Shown here: positions 5,063 to 53,837 of the stretch, one piece after another
How the letters are laid out: every line of letters starts with the position of its first letter
Numbering within the stretch: the stretch's first letter is position 1
Assembly (NCBI GenBank): GCA_964627075.1
Contig: CAZVHU010000001.1
Span: 6,454 to 66,841 of the forward strand
Length of the DNA stretch: 60,388 bases
Direction: 5' to 3'
Source: an uncultured Enterobacteriaceae bacterium
GTDB taxonomy: Bacteria > Pseudomonadota > Gammaproteobacteria > Burkholderiales > SG8-39
Program-made: the position numbers and the translations under genes
Notes under the pieces: model-generated
Databases searched by the model: none
What the model saw: only the letters and a program-made list of their open reading frames with translations
What the model was told of the DNA's origin: nothing

Positions 5063-5545
5063 TCAGGCCCTGGCGCCCGCCTTGCCGCCCTTCAAGCGCT
5101 CGATCGCGAACTGCAGCGCAAGGTCGTAACCCCGGCCCCCCAGCCCCAGGATGCTGCCCACGGCGACCGCGGTGTAGTGCGAGTGCGCACGCCATGGCTC
5201 TCGCGCGTGGATGTTCGACAGGTGAACCTCGATGAACGGGATGCGCACCGCGGTCAGCGCGTCGCGCACCGCGATGCTCGAATAGGTGAAGGCCGCCGGG
5301 TTGAGGATGATGAAGCCGACGCCGTCCCGGCCGGCTTGCTGGATGCGGTCCACCATCGCCCCTTCGTGATTGGTCTGGAAGCACTCCAGGCCGACCCCGG
5401 CCACCTTGGCCGCCTTGGCAAGGCGACCGTTTATCTGCTCCAGGGTCTCACGCCCGTAAAGGTGCGGTTCCCGCGTTCCCAAGAGATTCAGGTTCGGCCC
5501 GTTGAGAACCAAAACCCCCCTACCCCCGGATTTCGGCATTTTCAT
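5063..5545 (-). CDS. aroQ: Type II 3-dehydroquinate dehydratase
   Basis: 160 aa. It has the motifs [14 protein letters not shown] and [12 protein letters not shown]. Confidence 0.92.
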
Positions 5546-5622
5546 GATTTTCCCAGAAGAAGACTGCAGTTTAACTCACGCTCGACACATGTTCGCGGCT
5601 GATTGACACCCTATACCAGGGC

Positions 5623-6156
5623 TCAGGCCCGCAGCATCTCGTAGAGCAACCCCTCCAATTCGGCCTGCTTGAGGGCGCCTAGCCTGGATTTACCGGGCTC
5701 CCCCCGGCGGTCGAGGAAGACCGTGTAGGGTAACCCCCCCGCCTTGTTTCCGAGCTGCCGCACAAGGTCCAGCCCTCCGGCATCGGCGACAAGCACGGGG
5801 TAGGTGATTTTCATCGCTTCTGAATATTCGCGTACTTTCTCGGCAAGATCGATGGCGATACCTACGATTTCGACGCCTTTCGGAGCGAATTGTGCCCTCA
5901 CTTCGATCAGCATGGGGATCTCTTCCCGGCAAGGCGGGCACCAGGTCGCCCAGAAGTTGACCACCACGACCTTCCCCTTCCACTCGCCGATGCGCCTTGC
6001 CTTGCCTTGAAGATCGGCGAAAGTCGCCTCGGCGAGCGCTGTCGCACGGCCCTTGGGCGAGCGCTCTAGCAGCAGCGGCCCGGCAAGGAAGCCGGCGGCC
6101 GCCGCGGCGACCGCCACCCCGCCGAGGATCAGGGCTTCGCGCCGCTTGAGCGCCAT
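5623..6156 (-). CDS. TlpA-family periplasmic thiol:disulfide oxidoreductase
   Basis: 177 aa. It has an N-terminal membrane anchor and the thioredoxin motif WATWCPPC. Confidence 0.8.
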   Translation of the reverse strand: MALKRREALILGGVAVAAAAAGFLAGPLLLERSPKGRATALAEATFADLQGKARRIGEWKGKVVVVNFWATWCPPCREEIPMLIEVRAQFAPKGVEIVGIAIDLAEKVREYSEAMKITYPVLVADAGGLDLVRQLGNKAGGLPYTVFLDRRGEPGKSRLGALKQAELEGLLYEMLRA

Positions 6157-11192: not shown

Positions 11193-12116
11193 GTGATTTT
11201 GCAGGGAAACGCCGGGACCCTGTTGGTTGACCCGCAGGCCTACTGGAGCGGACTCGACCGCCCTTCGCGAGTGCTGTACGCGTCGGTCGCCGCCTCGGTG
11301 CTGCTGCACGCGGCATTCCTCAGCGTGCACTTCCGCTTCCCCGACCAGTTGCGCTGGAAGTCCGGCAACCAGCCGCTCGAGGTGGTGCTCGTCAACGCCA
11401 AGACGCGCGAGCGGCCGCAGGATTCGCAGGCCCTCGCGCAGGCCAGCCTGGACGGCGGCGGCAACACCGATCTCGACCGGCGCGCGGCAACGCCGCTGCC
11501 GGTCACCGAGCCGCGCGACCCGGGGCGCGAGCTCGCGGCGGCGCAGCGCCGCCAGCGGCAGCTCGAGGCGCAGCAGCAGAGGCTGCTTGCCGCGGCGCGC
11601 GAAGCGAGCGCCGCCGCGCGCGCCGCGCCACAGACGGCGCGCGAGGCGCCCGCGGAGCAGCCCTCGCCCAACGTCTCGGGCCGCGACCTCGCGGACCTGT
11701 CGCTGGCGGCGATGCAGCTGCAGGCGCAGATCGACCGGCGCGTGCAGGAATACCAGAAGCGGCCGCGCAAGCGCTTCATCGGCGCGCGCGCCACCGAGTA
11801 CCGCTTCGCGCAGTACGAGGAGGACTGGCGCGCCAAGGTCGAGCGCCTGGGCACGCTCAACTATCCCTCGGAAGCGCGCGGCAAGCTCTACGGCAACCTG
11901 CGCCTGACGGTGACCATCCGCCCCGACGGCACGGTGGAGTCGGTGGAGCTCGACCGCTCCTCGGGCCTCAAGGTGCTGGATGCGGCGGCATTCCGCATCG
12001 TGCGCATGGCGGCGCCGTTCGCCGAGTTCCCGCCCGACATCCGCAAGGACACCGATCTGCTCGTCATCACGCGGACTTGGTTTTTTGGCCAAGGTGACAG
12101 ACTCTGGACTGAATGA
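11193..12116 (+). CDS. TonB-family C-terminal-domain protein
   Basis: 307 aa. It has an N-terminal TM segment (YASVAASVLLHAAFLSV), a charged Ala/Arg/Gln-rich linker, and a TonB_C-like end (LRLTVTIRPDGTVESVELDRSSGLKVLDAAAFRIV). Confidence 0.7.
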   Translation: MILQGNAGTLLVDPQAYWSGLDRPSRVLYASVAASVLLHAAFLSVHFRFPDQLRWKSGNQPLEVVLVNAKTRERPQDSQALAQASLDGGGNTDLDRRAATPLPVTEPRDPGRELAAAQRRQRQLEAQQQRLLAAAREASAAARAAPQTAREAPAEQPSPNVSGRDLADLSLAAMQLQAQIDRRVQEYQKRPRKRFIGARATEYRFAQYEEDWRAKVERLGTLNYPSEARGKLYGNLRLTVTIRPDGTVESVELDRSSGLKVLDAAAFRIVRMAAPFAEFPPDIRKDTDLLVITRTWFFGQGDRLWTE

Positions 12117-12219: not shown

Positions 12220-13047
12220 TTGTCAGTGACTGACCGTTACGCCGTGATCGGCAATCCGGTGGCGCACTCGAAGTCGCCCTGGATCCACGCCGAGTTCGCG
12301 CGCGCCACCGGCCAGGACATGGATTACGGGCGCATCGAGGCGCCGCTCGAGGGCTTCGAGCGCGCGGTGGACGAATTCCGCGCCGCGGGCGGGCGCGGCG
12401 CCAACGTCACGCTGCCGTTCAAGGAGCGGGCGTTCCGCTACTGCAGCGCGCCGAGCGCGCGCGCCCAAGCCGCGCAGGCGGTGAACACGCTCGTCTTCGA
12501 GGGCGGCACGGTGCGCGGCGACAACACCGACGGCGCCGGGCTGGTGCGGGACCTCGGCGTCAATTGCGGCCGGAGAATCGCCGGCAGCAGGATCCTTCTC
12601 CTGGGCGCGGGCGGCGCGGCGCGCGGCGTGCTCGCGCCGCTTGCCCAGGCAGGCGCCGCGCACATCGTGATCGCCAATCGCACCGTGGCGCGCGCGCAGG
12701 CGCTCGCCGCCTCGCTCGCGGAATTCGCGGTGAGCGCCTGCGGCTACGACGTGCTCGCAGGGCAGTCGTTCGACCTCGTGATCAACGCCACCTCGGCGGG
12801 ACTCGAGGGGGCGGCGCCTCCCTTGCCGGCGGGCGTGTTCGCGCGCGGCGCGCTCGCCTACGAGATGGTCTATGGCCGCGACACGCCGTTCCTCGCCATG
12901 GCGCGCGCCGCGGGCGCCGAAGCCTGCGACGGCACCGGCATGCTGGTGGAGCAGGCGGCGGAGTCGTTCTTCCTATGGCGCGGCGTGCGGCCCGACACCG
13001 CCGCGGTGCTCGCCGCGCTGCGCCGGCGCCCACGCACCGCGCCATGA
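12220..13047 (+). CDS. aroE: Shikimate dehydrogenase
   Basis: 275 aa. It has YAVIGNPVAHSKSPWIH and the NADP-binding LLGAGGAARG. The start may be the GTG at 12226. Confidence 0.92.
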   Translation: MSVTDRYAVIGNPVAHSKSPWIHAEFARATGQDMDYGRIEAPLEGFERAVDEFRAAGGRGANVTLPFKERAFRYCSAPSARAQAAQAVNTLVFEGGTVRGDNTDGAGLVRDLGVNCGRRIAGSRILLLGAGGAARGVLAPLAQAGAAHIVIANRTVARAQALAASLAEFAVSACGYDVLAGQSFDLVINATSAGLEGAAPPLPAGVFARGALAYEMVYGRDTPFLAMARAAGAEACDGTGMLVEQAAESFFLWRGVRPDTAAVLAALRRRPRTAP

Positions 13048-37990: not shown

Positions 37991-38976
37991 CTACTCGATC
38001 ACCCGGTCGGCGCGCAGCAGCACGCTCCGCGGCACGGCGAGGCCGATCGCCTTGGCGGTCTTCAGATTCACCACCATCTCGAAGCGCGACGCCTGGTCCA
38101 CGGGCAGGCCGGCGGGCTTCGTCCCTTTCAGCACCCGCGCCATCATGTCGGCCGCGCGGCGCACGTCGTCCGTGAGGCTGGTTCCCAAGGAGGTCAAGCC
38201 GCCGCGCTCGACCATCTCGGCGTCGGAGAAGATCACGGGTATGCGCTGCCGGTCCGCGGCCTCGACGATGCGCTCCCCGGTGACGGGCGAATCGGCGAAC
38301 CAGGCGTACGGCACCAGCACATCGGCGCCGGCGGCGACGGCGCCGTCGACCGTTGTATCCCAGCCGGTGCGGTCCGCGGTCACGAACTCCATCAGATCGA
38401 TCGCAAGCCGGGCGGCGGTATTTCTCAGCTCGGGCGCCAAGGCGGCGAACTCGTCCGTGTGGGTTCTGCCAACCACGGCCACACGTTTCGCCCCGGGTAA
38501 CAGCTCCCGCGCGAGTTCCAGGCGCTTGTGCAGCAATTCGCCAAACCGGTTGCTCACCCCGGTGGCGTTGCCGCCTGGCCTCGCGTAGCTTCTCACGATC
38601 CCCGCAACGACCGGGTCCGGACCCACACGAACACGATCGGCACCGACTTTCTTGCCGCGATCGCGGCCTCGGCGGCTCGCGTCGAGAAGGCCAGGATCGC
38701 ATCCGCCCCGGCGGCCACTATGCGACGCACGTACTCGCGATCATCGCTGAAATCGCCGCTCTCGGCGCGCGCGTCGATCTCGAGGTTGCGTCCCTCGACG
38801 AAGCCGTGGCCCGCGAGCCGCTCGAGGAGCGCGGCGCGGTAGCGCTCCATGCCCGGGCCGCTCGCAAGCAGCACGCCGACGCGATAGGTCCGTGCCGTCT
38901 TCTGAGCGAGCGCGATCGGTGCCGCAAGCAGCGCGCTCGCGGCGAGCAGCAGTCTGCGTCGCCGGGTGTCGCTCAA
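37991..38976 (-). pseudogene. ABC transporter substrate-binding protein (PF04392-like), frameshifted
   Basis: Two ORFs (38593-38976 and 37991-38626) join into one protein. It has a signal peptide, YRVGVL, PIVFV|VGPDPVVAGIV...ARPGGNATG, and an LKTAKAIGL tail. One nucleotide is missing near 38625. A sequencing error cannot be excluded. Confidence 0.7.
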
Positions 38977-47469: not shown

Positions 47470-47500
47470 CATAGAGCGTTCATTCGAGAGGACGGAAACC

Positions 47501-48418
47501 ATGAAACGGATTGTTCTCGGCGCGGCAGTCGCGCTCCTTGGCGCGATGCTCGTCGCCACCGAAGTCGAAGCCAGGCGCGTGGGCGGCGGCCGCACGCTCG
47601 GCGCGCAGCGCAACCTCACCAACGCGCCCCCGGCGCAGGCCCCGGCGAAGCCCGCCCAGCAGCAGACGCAGCAGGTGGCGCCGCGGCAACAGCCGGCGGC
47701 GCAGCCCGGCGCTGCGCCCGCGGCGGGCCAGCCCGCGCCCGCGAGCGGCTTGAGCCGCTGGATGCCGATGCTCGGCGGGCTCGCGCTCGGCGGGCTGCTC
47801 GGCTCGCTCTTCGCGGGCAGCGGTTTCGGCGCCGCGCTCATGGGGATCCTGACGGTGGCGCTGCTCGCCCTCGGAGTGCTGGCCGTGGTGCGCATGCTCG
47901 CCGCCAAGCGCGGCGATGCGCCGCGCCCGGTGCAGTTCGCGGGGCTGGGCAACGAGACGGTCGCCGCGCCGCCGCCCTCGCAGGCGGCGGGCTTGGACGC
48001 GCCGGCCGCGCGCGCTGCGCCCGATGCCGCCGTCGCGGCGCGCATCCCGGAAGGCTTCGACAGCGCCGGCTTCCTGCGCGGCGCGAAGCTCAACTTCATG
48101 AAGCTGCAGCTCGCCAACGACACCGGCAATCTCGACGAGTTGCGCGAGTTCACCACGCCGGAGCTCTACGAGGACCTTGCCCGCGAGGTGCGCGAGCGCG
48201 GCGGCGCCCGGCAGCAGACCGACATCATGGCGCTCAACGCCGACCTGCTCGAGGTCGTCACCGAGGGCGACCGGCACTGGGCGAGCGTGCGTTTCTCGGG
48301 CTCGGTGCGCGAGACACCGGGGAGCGCGCCCGAGGGCTTCGAGGAGGTGTGGAACCTCGCCAAGCCGGTGGACGGCTCCAGCGGCTGGCTGCTGGCCGGC
48401 ATCCAGCAGATGCATTGA
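47501..48418 (+). CDS. Tim44-like domain protein
   Basis: 305 aa from MKRIVLG. It has a signal/TM segment, a Gln/Pro/Ala-rich linker, a Gly-rich TM segment, and a C-terminal Tim44-like domain (FLRGAKLNFMKLQLAND...WLLAGIQQ). Confidence 0.75.
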   Translation: MKRIVLGAAVALLGAMLVATEVEARRVGGGRTLGAQRNLTNAPPAQAPAKPAQQQTQQVAPRQQPAAQPGAAPAAGQPAPASGLSRWMPMLGGLALGGLLGSLFAGSGFGAALMGILTVALLALGVLAVVRMLAAKRGDAPRPVQFAGLGNETVAAPPPSQAAGLDAPAARAAPDAAVAARIPEGFDSAGFLRGAKLNFMKLQLANDTGNLDELREFTTPELYEDLAREVRERGGARQQTDIMALNADLLEVVTEGDRHWASVRFSGSVRETPGSAPEGFEEVWNLAKPVDGSSGWLLAGIQQMH

Positions 48419-48458
48419 CCCCGAGGCGGGCCGCCGCGAGCGGCTTCCGGTAACATCG

Positions 48459-48488
48459 AAAGGCCACCGCATGGTGGCCTTTTGTTTT
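48459..48488 (+). terminator. Rho-independent terminator between the Tim44-like gene and ubiJ
   Basis: It has a 10-bp stem AAAGGCCACC/GGTGGCCTTT, the loop GCAT, then TGTTTTG. Confidence 0.8.
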
Positions 48489-48493
48489 GGCGC

Positions 48494-49078
48494 ATGCCCT
48501 TCGAATCCCCGGTCGCCGCGGCGCTCAACCACCTGCTCGAGGGCGAGTCCTGGGCGCGAGAGCGCCTGGCGCCCTTCGCGGGCGAGGCGCTCGAGTTGCG
48601 CGCGCCGCCGCTGCCTGCGCTGCGCTTCGCGATCGCCGCCGGCGGGCGGCTCGCGCCCGCCGCTGCCGACGCGGTGCCGTCCCTCGCCATCACCGTAGGG
48701 CCGCAGGCGCTGCCTGCGCTGGCGCGCGGCGAAGAGCACTTCCTGCGCGCGATCGAGGTCTCGGGCAATGCGCGCCTCGCGTCGGAAGTCATGTTCCTCT
48801 TCCGGCACCTGCGCTGGGACTTCGAGGAAGACCTCTCCAGGCTCGTCGGCGACGCCGCCGCGCACCGCGCGGCGCGCGCGGCGCGCACCCTGATCGCCTG
48901 GCAGAAGGACGCCGCGCAGCGCATCGCCGAGGGGCTGATGGATTACGCAGTCGAGGAAAAGCACCTGCTCGTGCCGCGCGCGGAGCTGGAAAAGCTCGCG
49001 CAGGGCGCGGCGCAGCTGCGCGACGCGCTGGAGCGGCTGCAGAAGCGGCTCGAGCGCCAGGAGCGGGGCGGTGTCTAG
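48494..49078 (+). CDS. ubiJ: Ubiquinone biosynthesis accessory factor UbiJ (SCP2 domain)
   Basis: The ATG at 48494 is preferred, because the TTG at 48482 lies in the terminator tail. It has an SCP2-like core ([23 protein letters not shown]) and sits between ubiE and ubiB. Confidence 0.75.
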
Positions 49079-50591
49079 CCTGGTGCGCCTGGCGCGCATC
49101 CTCTGGATCGGGCTGCGCTTCGGGCTGCACGAGTTCATCCCCGGGCTCCCCGGCGGCCGGCTGCTCGCGCTGTTCGCCGGCGGGGCGGGCGAGCCGCGCG
49201 CCGTGCGCCTGCGGCGCGCGCTCGAGACCCTCGGCCCCATCTTCGTCAAGTTCGGGCAGGTGCTCTCGACGCGCCGCGACCTGCTGCCGGTGGACATCGC
49301 CGACGAGCTCGCCAAGCTCCAGGACCGGGTGCCGCCCTTCGACTCCAAGCTCGCGGTGGCCGAGATCGAGCGCTCGCTCGGGCGGCCGCTCGACGAGGTG
49401 TTCGCGAGCTTCGAGAGCCGCTGCGAGGCGAGCGCCTCGATCGCGCAGGTGCACCTCGGGGTGCTGAAGAGCGGACAGGAAGTGGCGGTCAAGGTGCTAC
49501 GGCCCGGCGTGGAGAAGGCGGTGGCCGGGGACGTGCTGCTGCTCGAGGCGGCGGCGCAGCTCATGGAAAAGCTCTGGGCGGAGGGCCGGCGCCTGAAGCC
49601 GCGCGAGGTGGTGGCCGAGTTCTCGCGCCACCTCGAGGAGGAGCTCGATCTCATGCGCGAGGCCGCCAACGCCTCGCAGCTGCGGCGCAACTTCGAGGAC
49701 TCGAAGATGTTGCTGGTGCCGGCGGTCTACTGGGACTACTGCGCGCAGCGCGTCATGGTGATGGAGCGCATGCGCGGCACGCCCGTGTCGCAGGTCGCCG
49801 AGCTGCGCGCCAGGGGCATCGACATCCCGCAGCTCGCGCGCGCCGGAGTCGAGATCTTCTTCCAGCAGGCGTTCCGCGACGGGTTCTTCCACGCCGACAT
49901 GCACCCGGGCAACATCTTCGTCGCCACCGAGGGCGAGGCGAAGGGCCGCTATGTCGCGCTCGACTTCGGCATCATGGGCGCGCTCACCGAGCGCGACAAG
50001 AACTACCTGGCGCAGAATTTCGTCGCCTTCTTCAACCGCGACTACCGGCGCGTGGCGCAGGCGCACCTCGACGCCGGCTGGGTGCCGCCGGGCACGCGGG
50101 TGGAGGCGTTCGAATCGGCGATCCGCGCCGTGTGCGAGCCGGTGTTCGCGCGGCCGCTGAAGGAGATCTACTTCGGCAAGCTGCTGCTGCGCCTGTTCCA
50201 GACCTCGCGCCGCTTCAACGTCGAGATCCAGCCGCAGCTGGTGCTGCTGCAAAAGACGCTGCTCAACATCGAGGGCCTCGGGCGCGAGCTCGATCCGGAC
50301 CTCGACCTCTGGAAGACCGCCAAGCCCTACCTCGAGAAGTGGCTGAGCGACCGCATCGGCTGGCGCGGCCTGCTCGATACCTTCAGGCGCGAGGCCCCCT
50401 ACTGGGCGCAGACGCTGCCCGAGCTGCCGCGGATGCTGCACCGGATGCTGGCCGAGGACCGGCTGGGGGCGCTGGAGGCAGCGGTGCGCGAGCTCGCCGC
50501 CGAGGAGCGGCGGCGCAACGACCTGCTCTCCGCGCTCGTTTTCCTCGCGTTGGTGGGCATCGCCGTCTTCAGCATAGCCATCCTCGTTTAG
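49071..50591 (+). CDS. ubiB: UbiB (ABC1-family kinase-like ubiquinone biosynthesis protein)
   Basis: 506 aa. It has [26 protein letters not shown] and [10 protein letters not shown], plus C-terminal TM segments. Confidence 0.93.
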
Positions 50592-50624
50592 CGCCGCCAT
50601 CCAAGGTCGGCGCCGAGGCGGGTC

Positions 50625-50752
50625 GGCTCCGCCGCCCTGGACCGCAAACGCCGCGCCACGGGTGCCCGGCGGGGCAGACTTCGGTCAGATTGAAGCTCTT
50701 GTCTGCCCCGCCACCCGTGGAGCACGGCGCGGCCCCGAAGGGCGGCGGAGCC
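50625..50752. other. 128-nt compound imperfect palindrome (long hairpin) downstream of ubiB
   Basis: Read directly. The outer stem is 13 bp perfect (50625-50637 with 50740-50752). The middle stems are 6 and 7 bp. The apical stem is 12 bp (50668-50679 with 50701-50712). The loop is 21 nt and AT-richer. Confidence 0.75.
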
Positions 50753-50892
50753 GCCCCGCCCCGGCGGCGGCACAGGGACGCGAGCGCATATACAGACGTC
50801 GGGTGCTCGCGAACGCCGATTCCTGCAGTCACGCATGCGACGGATTCATCGCGACCGCGCCCGCAGCGGCGCGCCTTGGGATGGGGAAATGA

Positions 50893-50915
50893 AGTGTAAA
50901 GAGTGACTTTACACT
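50893..50915 (+). repeat. 23-bp AT-rich palindrome, copy c: AGTGTAAAG-AGTGA-CTTTACACT
   Basis: Read directly, with perfect arms. It lies 87 nt upstream of the 51002 ATG. Confidence 0.9.
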
Positions 50916-51001
50916 CTGCCCGCCTGGCGCCGGCGCTCGAACCAGCTCCCGGATTGGGGCGTAGACTTTGCGGTGATTGCTCTGTAACGGAGGGCGCTGC
51001 G

Positions 51002-51992
51002 ATGCAAACCCTACGCAGGCAGCTGCTGATTGCCGCGGGCACCCTGCTCGCGACGCCACTTGCCCGCGCGCAGATATCGCCAAAGCTGCGGCGGATCGGG
51101 CACCTGCAGCTCAATCCCTATGCCGATGGCGTGCAGAAATGGTGGCTCGCAGGGCTGCAGCAAGCAGGCTACGAGCATGGAAAAAAATCTTCTGGTTGAA
51201 TGGCGTTCTGCCGAGGGCGATGCAGGGCGCCTGCCCGCCCTTGTCGATGAACTCGTGCGCCTCAACGTCGAGTTGCTCGTGGCTATTTCCAGTGACGCCG
51301 AAGATGCGGCCAAGCAGGCGTCCCGAACGATCCCCATCGTGACGTTTGGGACCACCTTTCCGATCGAGCGGGGATTGATCAAGAGCTTCGCGCGCCCGGG
51401 CGGCAACATTACCGGAACGGTCTGGTTCGTCGACCCGGAAGTCACGTTTTCAAAGCAATACCAGATCTTCAAGGACGCCGTGCCCGGCGCGAGCCGGGTG
51501 TACGCTTTGTACTATGGCGCGGATCCGGCTTTGCGATTCTGGGATAGAGCGCTTGAACGTCGCCTGGCGAAGGCGATGGGGTTGACCGTGCAGGATTTCC
51601 CGCTACACCGACCTGAGGCCGTGAAGCCGACGCTCGAGCGCATCGCTTCCAGTCGACCGGATGTGCTCTCGGTATCAGGCAATGTTCAGGCCTCTCTTGG
51701 AGCGTTCCCGGAAATCGCCGCGTTCGCTCTGCAGCATAAGCTCGTGTCGTACTCGGAAAGCGAACGCTACCCTCGTTTCGGCGGACTGCTTTCCTATGGA
51801 CCAAACTTTCTTGGCTTGCGGGAGTTCATGGTCAGCTACGTTGACAGGATCCTGCGCGGAGCCAAGGCCGCCGATCTGCCTGTCCAGCAGACGACAAAGT
51901 GGGATTTGGTGCTCAACGCCAAGACCGCTCAGGCCATCGGATTCAGGCCGCCGCCCGCGTTCATGCTGCAAGTGACGCGTCAGATCGAATGA
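51002..51992 (+). pseudogene. ABC transporter substrate-binding protein (PF04392-like) paralogue, frameshifted in an A7 run
   Basis: The ORFs 50903-51199 (from the Met at 51002) and 51030-51992 join if the A7 at 51181-51187 is read as A6: ...AGYEHGK|NLLVEWRSAEGD.... It has a signal peptide, IPIVTFG, ARPGGNITG, and an LNAKTAQAIGF tail. It is visibly less GC-rich than its neighbours. Confidence 0.7.
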
Positions 51993-52036
51993 AGCGTCGG
52001 GCAATCGACGTGCTCGCAGTGGACGCGGGCAGGCAA

Positions 52037-52059
52037 AGTGTAATGCGTGGCTTTACACA
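52037..52059 (+). repeat. 23-bp AT-rich palindrome, copy d (degenerate): AGTGTAATG-CGTGG-CTTTACACA
   Basis: Read directly, with 7/9 arm complementarity. It lies 45 nt downstream of the 51992 stop. Confidence 0.8.
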
Positions 52060-52237
52060 TTGGCCCGCGGACACCGCCAACCGCTGCGCGCCGTCCGACG
52101 TTGCCGCAAGGGGTCCCCATCGGGCCGCGCGGAGCCGCGCCGCGGGCGGAGGGAGCAGACCGAGCACTGTCTGAGCCCGTAAGAGGAGTAGGGCGAGTTG
52201 CGCAGGTCTCCGACGATCGCGGCAATGAGGCGAGGGT

Positions 52238-52286
52238 AAAGAAAATCGGGGACAGACCCGGAAGGCAGGTCTGTCCCCGATTTTCT
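52238..52286. terminator. Perfect 20-bp hairpin (9-nt loop), probably a bidirectional intrinsic terminator
   Basis: AAGAAAATCGGGGACAGACC-cggaaggca-GGTCTGTCCCCGATTTTCTT. It has a GC-rich upper stem. The AT-rich lower stem gives a U-rich tail on either strand. Confidence 0.6.
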
Positions 52287-52382
52287 TCGCGGCCCTGGGG
52301 AAGGCGGTAACGTCGGGCGGCGCGCGGGCGCGCCTGAAGGTGTTCTGCATATAATCGCCGCCAAACTCGTGCGCCGGCCGCC

Positions 52383-53837
52383 ATGCTGATCGCTTTCGTC
52401 GCGCTCTACCTCGTGCTCACCATCGCGGTCGGGCTGTGGGCGGCGGCGCGGGTGCACAACACGAAGGACTATGTGCTCGCGGGGCGGAGCCTGCCGCTGT
52501 ACATGAGTGCGGCGACGGTCTTCGCCACCTGGTTCGGCGCCGAGACCGTGCTCTCGGTCTCCGCGACCTTCTCGCGCGACGGCCTTGGCGGCATCGTCGC
52601 GGACCCCTTCGGCTCGTCGTTCTGCCTGCTGTTCGTGGCGCTTTTCTTCGCGCGCGCCTTCTACCGCATGGACCTGCTCACGATCGGCGACTTCTACCAC
52701 CGGCGCTACAACAAGCCGGTGGAGGTGGCCACCAGCCTCGCGATCACGGTGTCGTACCTGGGCTGGACCTCGGCGCAGCTCACCGCGCTCGGGCTGGTGC
52801 TGTCCGTCGTTTCGGGCGGCGCGATCTCGCTCGAGACCGGGATCTACCTCGGCACCGCGATCGTGCTCGGCTACACCATCTGGGGCGGCATGTGGTCGGT
52901 GGCGATGACCGACCTGGTGCAGTCGGTGGTGATCCTCATAGGCCTCGCGCTGGTGGCGTGGCTGGTGGCCGACATGGCGGGCGGCGCCGGCAAGGTGATC
53001 GCCGCCGCCGCGCAGGCCGGCAAGTTCGAGTTCTGGCCCAAGGGCGGAACCAGGGAGTGGCTCGCCTTCCTCGCCGCCTGGATGACGCTCGCCATCGGCT
53101 CGATCCCGCAGCAGGACGTGTTCCAGCGCGTCACCTCGGCGAAGAACGAGAAAACCGCCGTGCGCGGCTGCCTGATCGGCGGCGCGGTGTACTTCTCCTT
53201 CGCCTTCGTGCCGATCTTCATCGCCTACGCGGCGCTGGTCATCGATCCCGGCTACGGCAAGCTGTTCGCGGGCGAGGACGCGCGCGAGATCCAGAGGATC
53301 CTGCCCAGCCTGATCCTCGACAGAACGCCGCTGTGGGCGCAGGTGCTGTTCTTCGGCGCGCTGCTCTCGGCGATCCTCTCCACCGCGTCGGGCGCGCTGC
53401 TCGCGCCGACGTCGCTGTTCACCGAGAACGTGATCCGGCCGTTCGCCCACCGCATGAGCGACCGCCAGTTCCTGCTGCTCTTGAGGGTGGTGCTCGCCAC
53501 CTTCTCGCTCGCGGCGCTCGTCTTCGCGCTCAACTCGCGCAGCACCATGTACGAGATGGTGCAGAACGCCTACAAGGTGACGCTGGTGTCGTGCGTGGTG
53601 CCGCTCGCCGCGGGGCTGTGGTGGAAGCGCGCCGACGTCGCGGGCGCGGTGCTCGCGGTCGCGTTTGGCCTCGCGTCCTGGGGCGCGGCCGAGATGCTCG
53701 CCGCGGACGCCACCGTGCCGCCGCAGCTCGTGGGCCTCGGGTTCTCGGCGCTCGGCATGCTGCTCGGCGCATACCTGCCGCGGCCGGGCGGGGCGCGCGC
53801 CGCGGCGCATCCCGCGGCGCACGAGCCGCGCAGATAG
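52383..53837 (+). CDS. Sodium:solute symporter family (SSF) transporter
   Basis: 484 aa and polytopic. The N-terminal region DYVLAGRSLPLYMSAATVFATWFGAETVL is typical of SSF. The substrate is not assignable. Confidence 0.85.
   Translation: MLIAFVALYLVLTIAVGLWAAARVHNTKDYVLAGRSLPLYMSAATVFATWFGAETVLSVSATFSRDGLGGIVADPFGSSFCLLFVALFFARAFYRMDLLTIGDFYHRRYNKPVEVATSLAITVSYLGWTSAQLTALGLVLSVVSGGAISLETGIYLGTAIVLGYTIWGGMWSVAMTDLVQSVVILIGLALVAWLVADMAGGAGKVIAAAAQAGKFEFWPKGGTREWLAFLAAWMTLAIGSIPQQDVFQRVTSAKNEKTAVRGCLIGGAVYFSFAFVPIFIAYAALVIDPGYGKLFAGEDAREIQRILPSLILDRTPLWAQVLFFGALLSAILSTASGALLAPTSLFTENVIRPFAHRMSDRQFLLLLRVVLATFSLAALVFALNSRSTMYEMVQNAYKVTLVSCVVPLAAGLWWKRADVAGAVLAVAFGLASWGAAEMLAADATVPPQLVGLGFSALGMLLGAYLPRPGGARAAAHPAAHEPRR

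Follow-up and report, generated by a model that had tools for sequence, protein, structure and literature searches.

The question raised by the locus between ubiB and a sodium:solute symporter (SSF) gene in an uncultured Burkholderiales bacterium is whether a gene with hairpins on both sides arrived there as one unit. The locus lies in the window, i.e. the whole analysed stretch of 60,388 nucleotides, which corresponds to positions 6454-66841 of contig C1 of the draft genome G000 (293 contigs, 3.48 Mb, 69.9% GC). The gap between the two core genes is 1791 bases long. A sequence-only reading had described its layout as symmetric: a long compound hairpin, a palindrome (copy c), an orphan frameshifted gene for an ABC substrate-binding protein (SBP), a second copy of the palindrome (d), and a perfect 20-bp hairpin. 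It had proposed an acquired and decaying single-gene cassette, bounded by structured DNA and belonging to no known class of mobile element. The features were all found where they had been placed, to within a base or two, the compound hairpin being somewhat larger (50608-50769 instead of 50625-50752). Very probably, the spacer is a small flexible islet, formed by an inserted orphan SBP gene and by repeats that arrived independently, and not a structured cassette or a new class of element.

That the gene was acquired is borne out by the relatives. In ten related genomes, nine of the same genus and one of another genus, the distance from the ubiB stop codon to the symporter start codon is 8-87 nt, mostly 11 nt, i.e. 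the site is empty. The SBP gene was found at this site in two of the twelve genomes of the genus, G000 and its closest species relative G003, as well as in a few metagenome contigs; the G003 gene is intact. The final 57 bases before the symporter start match the entire 50-nt spacer of the empty-site relative G005, including the ATAATCGC box, and for this reason the inserted block is placed at approximately 50592-52325. The box may be the symporter's own promoter element. The composition of the gene is atypical, as had been suspected from the letters: windowed GC is 0.58-0.62 over the gene and 0.68-0.75 in the flanks, and GC at third codon positions (GC3) is 0.715 in G000 and 0.663 in G003, compared with 0.966 in ubiB and 0.969 in the symporter gene. 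The SBP gene is evidently a derived insertion in the lineage holding G000 and G003.

The arrangement of the structures was compared among the alleles of the locus. The G000 allele contains the compound hairpin (element A), palindrome c, the gene broken in a run of seven adenines (A7), palindrome d, and a full copy of a longer repeat, element B, which carries the perfect hairpin (H). Three independent assemblies from two JGI samples and one Logan run (L056, L057, L058) match the window at 99.9-100% identity wherever they cover it. All three have c, d and the A7 run; element A is present in L056 and L057 and partly in L058; H and B are present in L056, and the contigs of L057 and L058 end there. 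In a sister population (L054, L055), 92% identical to the window over 50763-52092, the gene has six adenines (A6) and is intact, encoding 329 amino acids. Palindromes c and d are present, the latter in a perfect form, element A is reduced to the terminal remnant gccgaggcgg, and H and B are absent. L054 and L055 are independent assemblies that agree on this structure, and the absence of 52093-52326 from L054 leaves a clean empty site for element B. Elements A and B may have been lost from the L054 lineage through hairpin-prone deletion or excision. The G003 allele has A, the intact gene, d, and an H doublet with shortened B-like arms; the L043 allele has A, the intact gene, d, and the left H copy, its contig ending within the hairpin. 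Both lack palindrome c. By this comparison palindrome c was gained on the G000/L054 allele, and palindrome d is ancestral at the locus.

As the relatives carry differing subsets of the elements, no fewer than four separate events must have occurred, and the symmetry is peculiar to G000. The nested symmetry is thus, judged from these alleles, a coincidence of at least four separate events involving four independent genome-wide repeat families. A single acquired cassette ended by structured DNA, an unrecognised class of mobile element, is suggested by the symmetric layout in G000 and by the insertion of a gene with atypical composition, and is extremely improbable. Each structure belongs to a different genome-wide family, and the differing subsets at the same locus in L054, G003 and L043 already contradict it. 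Further units of palindrome, gene and palindrome are not enriched in G000: 8 pairs of palindromes within 1.5 kb were observed and 12.8 expected. Only one of the 13 SBP paralogues of G000, the window copy, has an upstream palindrome. The content between paired palindromes is not nameable, as the longest open reading frames (ORFs) at 70% GC are mostly spurious; in G000:C90 the interval between two copies (~5100-5905) reads as N. Acquisition and, as described below, decay were therefore correctly recognised in the sequence-only reading, and the bounding by structured DNA was not; no unknown class of element is needed.

The genealogy of the gene is discordant with that of its neighbours. Synonymous divergence (dS) between G000 and G003 is 0.32 in ubiB, 0.29 in the symporter gene and 0.75 in the SBP gene. 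Between G003 and L054 the respective values are 0.30, 0.24 and 0.74. Between G000 and L054 they are 0.30, 0.26 and 0.11, the L054 organism being known from 3.3 kb only. With vertical descent alone, a gene under weaker constraint than its flanks could not look younger than they do. Therefore the islet was exchanged between the lineages of G000 and L054 after their split, or one allele was replaced. These distances indicate that the SBP islet was laterally exchanged between related populations.

Table. Features of the ubiB-symporter spacer and its borders (window coordinates).
Feature	Coordinates	Strand	Basis
ubiB, left core gene	49071-50591	+	PF03109 ABC1, E = 6.1e-79
Element A, long-hairpin repeat of ~165 nt, MITE- or REPIN-like	50608-50769		three nested arm pairs, fold, genome copies
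Palindrome c, P-family hairpin	50870-50936, core 50894-50914		0 mismatches to GTGTAAAG-N5-CTTTACAC; GC-rich extended arms
Conserved GCGTAGACT box, ~43 nt upstream of the SBP ATG	50959-50967	+	alignment of seven upstream regions
Orphan PF04392 ABC substrate-binding-protein gene	ATG 51002, stop ends 51992	+	PF04392, E = 4.7e-27
Palindrome d, P-family hairpin	52038-52058		1 mismatch to GTGTAAAG-N5-CTTTACAC; 46 nt 3' of the SBP stop
Element B, 240 nt, MITE-like, carries the H hairpin	52086-52325		22-nt terminal inverted repeats 52086-52107 and 52304-52325
Perfect 20-bp hairpin, inverted pair of REP ATCGGGGACAGACC (family H), inside element B	52239-52287		arms 52239-52258 / 52268-52287, 100% complementary
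Ancestral ubiB-symporter spacer	52326-52382	+	homology to the G005 spacer; TATAAT box 52350-52355
Sodium:solute symporter (SSF) gene, right core gene	52383-53837	+	PF00474, E = 5.6e-36; TIGR00813

Palindromes c and d are members of a large family, P. Five copies were observed in the window and 0.01 expected. The G000 genome contains approximately 170-175 copies (103 perfect and 67 with one mismatch), and by genome the counts are 170 in G000, 176 in G003, one in G010 and none in 28 other relatives. The conserved part widens to an imperfect palindrome of ~60 nt; the extended fold of copy c has a free energy of -37.7 kcal/mol (z = -3.4). By GC3-based gene calls, which make the counts approximate, the copies lie between 62 convergent, 44 tandem and 10 divergent gene pairs, and the median distance from the nearest upstream stop codon is 22 nt. 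Family P is thus a high-copy, sequence-conserved, lineage-restricted palindrome at gene ends. A position-weight model confirms that c and d have the same orientation, as had been pointed out. Genome-wide, orientation of P is unrelated to gene direction (21 vs 23), and therefore the shared orientation is uninformative. No canonical U-tract of an intrinsic terminator follows the stem: the consensus there is CTt.Ggccccc, and the terminator scan of the region was blank. No P copy lies within 1.5 kb of any of the three genes with a Y1_Tnp domain in G000 or of the two in G003. Since no gene resembling a REP-associated tyrosine transposase (RAYT; REP, repetitive extragenic palindrome) is flanked by the GTGTAAAG palindrome, the family is without a known mobilising enzyme.

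A P copy was found within 46 nt after the stop codon in five of the 13 G000 SBP paralogues (e.g. C48:13579, C141:4118, C5:12298, C56:17711), where we estimate ~5% for all genes; the rough binomial p-value is ~4e-4. This fits a role at gene ends and suggests that the hairpin is linked to transcripts of binding proteins. The P copy at G003:C113:7416 is orthologous in position to that at G000:C193:2758, and copy c at the ubiB locus is not shared; hence the family mixes old and more recent copies. A layout resembling that of the window was observed in G003:C41:1020-2480 (L035), where a 40%-identical SBP paralogue is part of the series palindrome, gene, element B with its hairpin, palindrome. It may have arisen by chance, since paralogues (at least 40) and palindromes (~176) are both numerous in G003.

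The closest described counterpart of P is TRIT, a conserved palindromic terminator motif of Mycobacterium with 147 copies (Gardner et al. 2011, PMC3152330). Both are sequence-conserved palindromes with similar copy numbers (147 and ~170) and tight placement at gene ends, bidirectional through symmetry and confined to one lineage. However, the host, a betaproteobacterium of 70% GC, and the sequence are different, P having an AT-rich 8-bp stem with a loop of 5 nt. Unlike TRIT, P has no U-tract, and termination by it is putative. Moreover, the presence of palindrome c differs among close relatives, in which respect P also resembles a mobile REP.

A second analogy is with enterobacterial ABC operons, in which REP elements and bacterial interspersed mosaic elements (BIMEs) follow binding-protein genes (malE-malF, hisJ-hisQ). 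The position immediately 3' of a binding-protein stop codon is the same, as in the five paralogues above. However, the SBP gene of the window is an orphan without downstream permease genes, and therefore the REP/BIME role of differential stabilisation within an operon is not applicable. P is a hairpin of gene ends, of the REP or TRIT type, and may stop or stabilise transcripts. Palindrome d would then be the 3'-end hairpin of the SBP transcript, and palindrome c together with element A, both located 3' of ubiB, would stop or stabilise the ubiB transcript.

Element A has outer arms of 31 nt (50608-50638 / 50739-50769) that are 90% complementary, a middle stem (50653-50669 / 50707-50723) and a perfect apical stem of 12 bp (50668-50679 / 50701-50712). 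Its minimum free energy is -131.2 kcal/mol, with z = -8.5 relative to shuffled sequences. Four copies were found in G000, the three others being 90-96% identical (contigs C47, C97, C53), and more in G003. Among the 64 pairs predicted for six copies, 11 show compensatory changes, by which the hairpin has been kept.

Element B has the features of a miniature inverted-repeat transposable element (MITE): it is small, non-coding and multi-copy, it has terminal inverted repeats, which are 91% complementary, and it is present or absent at an orthologous site. In an alignment of copies (C32, C3, C261, C1:1-83) it begins and ends sharply. At least six copies exist, four left ends and six right ends having been found, and several contigs break inside. 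No consistent target-site duplication was seen at three copies. No autonomous partner was found in the draft genome, all pairs of ends lying 200-320 nt apart.

Correia elements of Neisseria are MITEs. Element B resembles elements of this type in being a non-coding, multi-copy sequence of 240 nt whose termini are 22-nt inverted repeats and whose site is cleanly empty in a relative; element A resembles them as a palindromic repeat of ~165 nt. However, unlike MITEs, element B has no definable target-site duplication and no autonomous partner with the same ends in the draft genome.

The perfect hairpin within element B consists of an inverted REP doublet (AATCGGGG-ACAGA-CCCCGATT) and has a free energy of -42.5 kcal/mol (z = -7.1). 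The 11-base core CGGGGACAGAC of its family occurs in at least 59 copies in G000, with at least ten inverted pairs; the exact 14-mer is present in 29 copies in G000, 78 in G003 and 6 in G001, and doublets with a spacing of 23 nt are numerous in G003. In both G000 (contig C69) and G003 (L052), copies in inverted orientation flank a gene between recN and fur that encodes a Y1/HUH transposase of 247 amino acids. In C69 the copies are at 12099 (+) and 12976 (-), around a Y1_Tnp match at 12496-12837. A RAYT gene flanked by its own REPs is the defining arrangement of the systems formed by these transposases and by REP doublets forming hairpins (REPINs) (Bertels and Rainey 2011, PMC3116915; PMC3337134). 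Multi-copy extragenic REPs, inverted doublets and a RAYT-like gene flanked by inverted REPs having all been found, the hairpin at 52239-52287 is by its sequence a REPIN.

The similarity to REPIN-RAYT systems covers the inverted doublet of a short palindromic REP, the tens of extragenic copies and the flanked Y1/HUH gene. There are three differences. The doublet of the window is a short form, with 23 nt from start to start, whereas in most other H pairs the spacing is ~58 nt. It sits inside a larger element with terminal inverted repeats. Finally, the C69 transposase scores above the Pfam threshold for Y1_Tnp (PF01797, 45.8 bits, cut-off 23) but below that of the NCBIfam model for RAYTs (NF047646 REP_Tyr_transpos, 60.7 bits, cut-off 80), and mobility of H is putative. 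The H copies may have been mobilised by the RAYT whose gene they flank. In the window, the REPIN with its A/T-rich lower stem may block read-through both ways ahead of the symporter TATAAT box. Three RAYT-like Y1 transposase genes were observed in G000, each with its own REP: ATTCGGGGACAGACCCC at C69:12040-13060 (L031), AATAGGGGTCAGAGCCC at C253 (L032), and a GGGTC..GACCC-type repeat at C213 (L033).

The sequence-only reading had also noted a similar core in the apical stems of the two outer hairpins. The two strings, CGGGGCAGAC (20 copies in the genome) and CGGGGACAGAC, are indeed present, and the ten-base GGGGACAGAC has 95 copies; CGGGGCAGAC and CGGGGACAGAC are the cores of different repeat families. 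The kinds of element involved are all known: REPIN/RAYT, MITE-like repeats, gene-end hairpins of the TRIT or REP type, and an orphan solute receptor.

The SBP protein has a Tat-like signal peptide (RRQLL). Its family is strongly expanded in the genus, with at least 12 PF04392 matches in G000 and at least 40 in G003, and the GC3 of most G000 paralogues is 0.84-0.93. In the tree the window copy falls into a clade with 100/100 support, together with the G003 copy, L043 and two copies from the ybbN locus, one being a second copy of G003 and the other a metagenome copy; the L043 protein is the sister of the G000 protein. In every member of this subclade examined GC3 is 0.65-0.75, and in adjacent genes it is 0.78-0.97. 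The low GC3 persists across 53-63% amino-acid identity (51002-51992, L011, L034, L038 4001-4990, L041 4001-4993, L043, L046). Repeated transfer from a pool of lower GC could account for it, as could constraint relaxed over a long time. The gene is a member of a fast-evolving, low-GC3 subclade that occurs in several unrelated contexts. In seven such contexts (the window, L011, L034, L038, L041, L043, L046) the GCGTAGACT box is located 43-50 nt before the start codon, and it is a candidate promoter, operator or regulator element belonging to the SBP gene itself. A scan of genome contigs with the SBP protein gave the G003 record and no other. A scan of metagenome contigs with the clade alignment revealed, among the matches listed, relatives of at most 51% identity and no further alleles of the locus.

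An orphan solute-receptor family expanded in a similar way is the Bug/TctC family of Bordetella. Here, too, there are many paralogues, most without adjacent transporter genes. However, PF04392 is a different protein family, and the subclade of the window is compositionally atypical and laterally exchanged. An SBP-dependent ABC importer was not found at the locus: the PF04392 domain is present, no importer partners were found among the neighbours scanned within ~5 kb, and the G000 frame is broken. A second PF04392 gene was observed in the window on the minus strand at 37994-38976. It is split by an internal stop or frameshift into ORFs 37994-38626 (E = 3.5e-33) and 38593-38976, has a GC3 of ~0.77, and looks like another decaying orphan SBP.

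The break in the gene lies in the A7 run at 51181-51187. An assembly artefact was considered for the locus and the frameshift and rejected, as L056, L057 and L058 reproduce the locus; the frameshift is real, because these three independent assemblies repeat the A7 run. The gene is evidently decaying in the G000 population, where a one-base slip in the adenine run has inactivated it. The ratio dN/dS of nonsynonymous to synonymous divergence is 0.37 for G000 and G003 and 0.45 for G000 and L054.

One possibility is that the gene is phase-variable, with slipped-strand switching between A6 and A7 and with the hairpins insulating SBP expression from ubiB and the symporter gene. The intact A6 frame in the sister population and the broken A7 frame in G000 agree with such a switch, and runs of a single base as long as this are uncommon in genomes of 70% GC. 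However, A7 is present in four out of four G000-type assemblies, which come from different samples and have contigs without sign of mixture. Furthermore, the value of 0.45 is relaxed, and G003 and L043 have no adenine run at this position. Phase variation is thus quite improbable.

Several observations weigh against an islet of independent arrivals and concern possible roles of the repeats in recombination. The block of recent ancestry between G000 and L054 (~50763-52092, from the identity profile) stops where elements A and B sit in G000, and these elements could conceivably have taken part in recombination. At the ybbN locus direct H copies stand on either side of a related SBP gene, and G000 has no gene there but a single REPIN; REPs may take part in the gain or loss of SBP genes. 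In addition, all the genomes are draft metagenome-assembled genomes and the copy numbers of repeats are lower bounds. The context statistics rest on a crude GC3-based ORF filter, by which 38 P copies are placed 'inside' genes.

The first two of these observations may be extended to an explanation in which the SBP gene and its control region of ~50 nt are gained, swapped and lost by recombination at REP or REPIN hairpins. Either homologous exchange between direct REPs or RAYT activity would bring this about, and A and B/H would mark the recombination points at ubiB. The high-identity block bounded by the positions of A and B is in line with it, as is the excess of P behind SBP paralogues. In G003:C105 and L038 the ybbN-locus gene has direct copies of GGGGACAG on both sides, a pattern that gain or loss through REP-REP recombination would produce, and the REPIN in G000:C59 has no gene. 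However, the direction of the ybbN difference is not readable from outgroups, since the locus is rearranged and the remaining genus members do not have ybbN and acnX side by side. A single event would not suffice there, because the adjacent TctC gene is also missing in G000. At ubiB the repeats on the two sides come from different families, at distances of 75-190 nt from the gene. Between the two loci the REPIN spacers show no relationship, and the homology of the paralogues ends at the conserved promoter box, which is present also in REP-free contexts. This explanation is thus unlikely; if true, the repeats would take an active part in gene flux instead of being passengers.

The contents of the ybbN locus were as follows. 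In G003:C105:51700-54000 (L034) and in L038, the related SBP gene, frameshifted in G003, and a TctC gene are located around a REPIN. In G000:C59:14850-15005 the REPIN stands alone.

The islet of independent arrivals is read as having formed in the following way. An orphan PF04392 gene with a short upstream control region entered the ubiB-symporter junction in the lineage of G000 and G003. Later it was swapped between related populations, and it is now broken by a homopolymer slip in the G000 population. The new non-coding space was colonised independently by P, H, B and A.

The surroundings of the locus were covered by a Pfam scan of 46.7-57.6 kb. The left neighbours are ubiE, a Tim44-like gene, ubiJ and ubiB; the right neighbours are the SSF symporter, a VanZ-like gene and an ABC-2 exporter permease. 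Three further ORFs had no Pfam match. None of the scanned neighbours, which are part of the ORFs of this region, was recognised as an importer permease or ATPase, an integrase or a transposase; the sequence-only reading agrees on this point. The GC3-based gene caller miscalls some genes, e.g. the shadow ORF 47480-49690. An integron gene cassette was rejected, as there is no recombinase among the scanned neighbours. Identification of the bounding palindromes with integron attC sites was rejected as well, since the palindromes have perfect 8-bp stems, 5-nt loops and ~170 copies genome-wide at gene ends. In an Rfam scan of 50000-53000 only sub-threshold look-alikes of microRNAs and small RNAs were found, and no RNA family described so far corresponds to element A or the hairpins. 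Scans of 50400-52500 with consensus patterns of sigma-70 promoters and intrinsic terminators gave no match, the terminator rule being one that excludes the perfect hairpin at 52239-52287 because of its 9-nt loop.

The locus is an example of a false pattern: a striking symmetry dissolves into independent ordinary events once the relatives and the rest of the genome are compared. The arrival of an orphan accessory gene creates non-coding space, which then fills with lineage-specific repeats (REP, REPIN and MITE-like). Four co-resident repeat families are thereby documented in an uncultured Burkholderiales lineage, one tied to a RAYT and another, P, without a known mobilising enzyme. Natural alleles with and without elements A and B show clean gain or loss of hairpin elements. 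Finally, there is evidence for exchange of a small islet between populations faster than its core flanks diverge.

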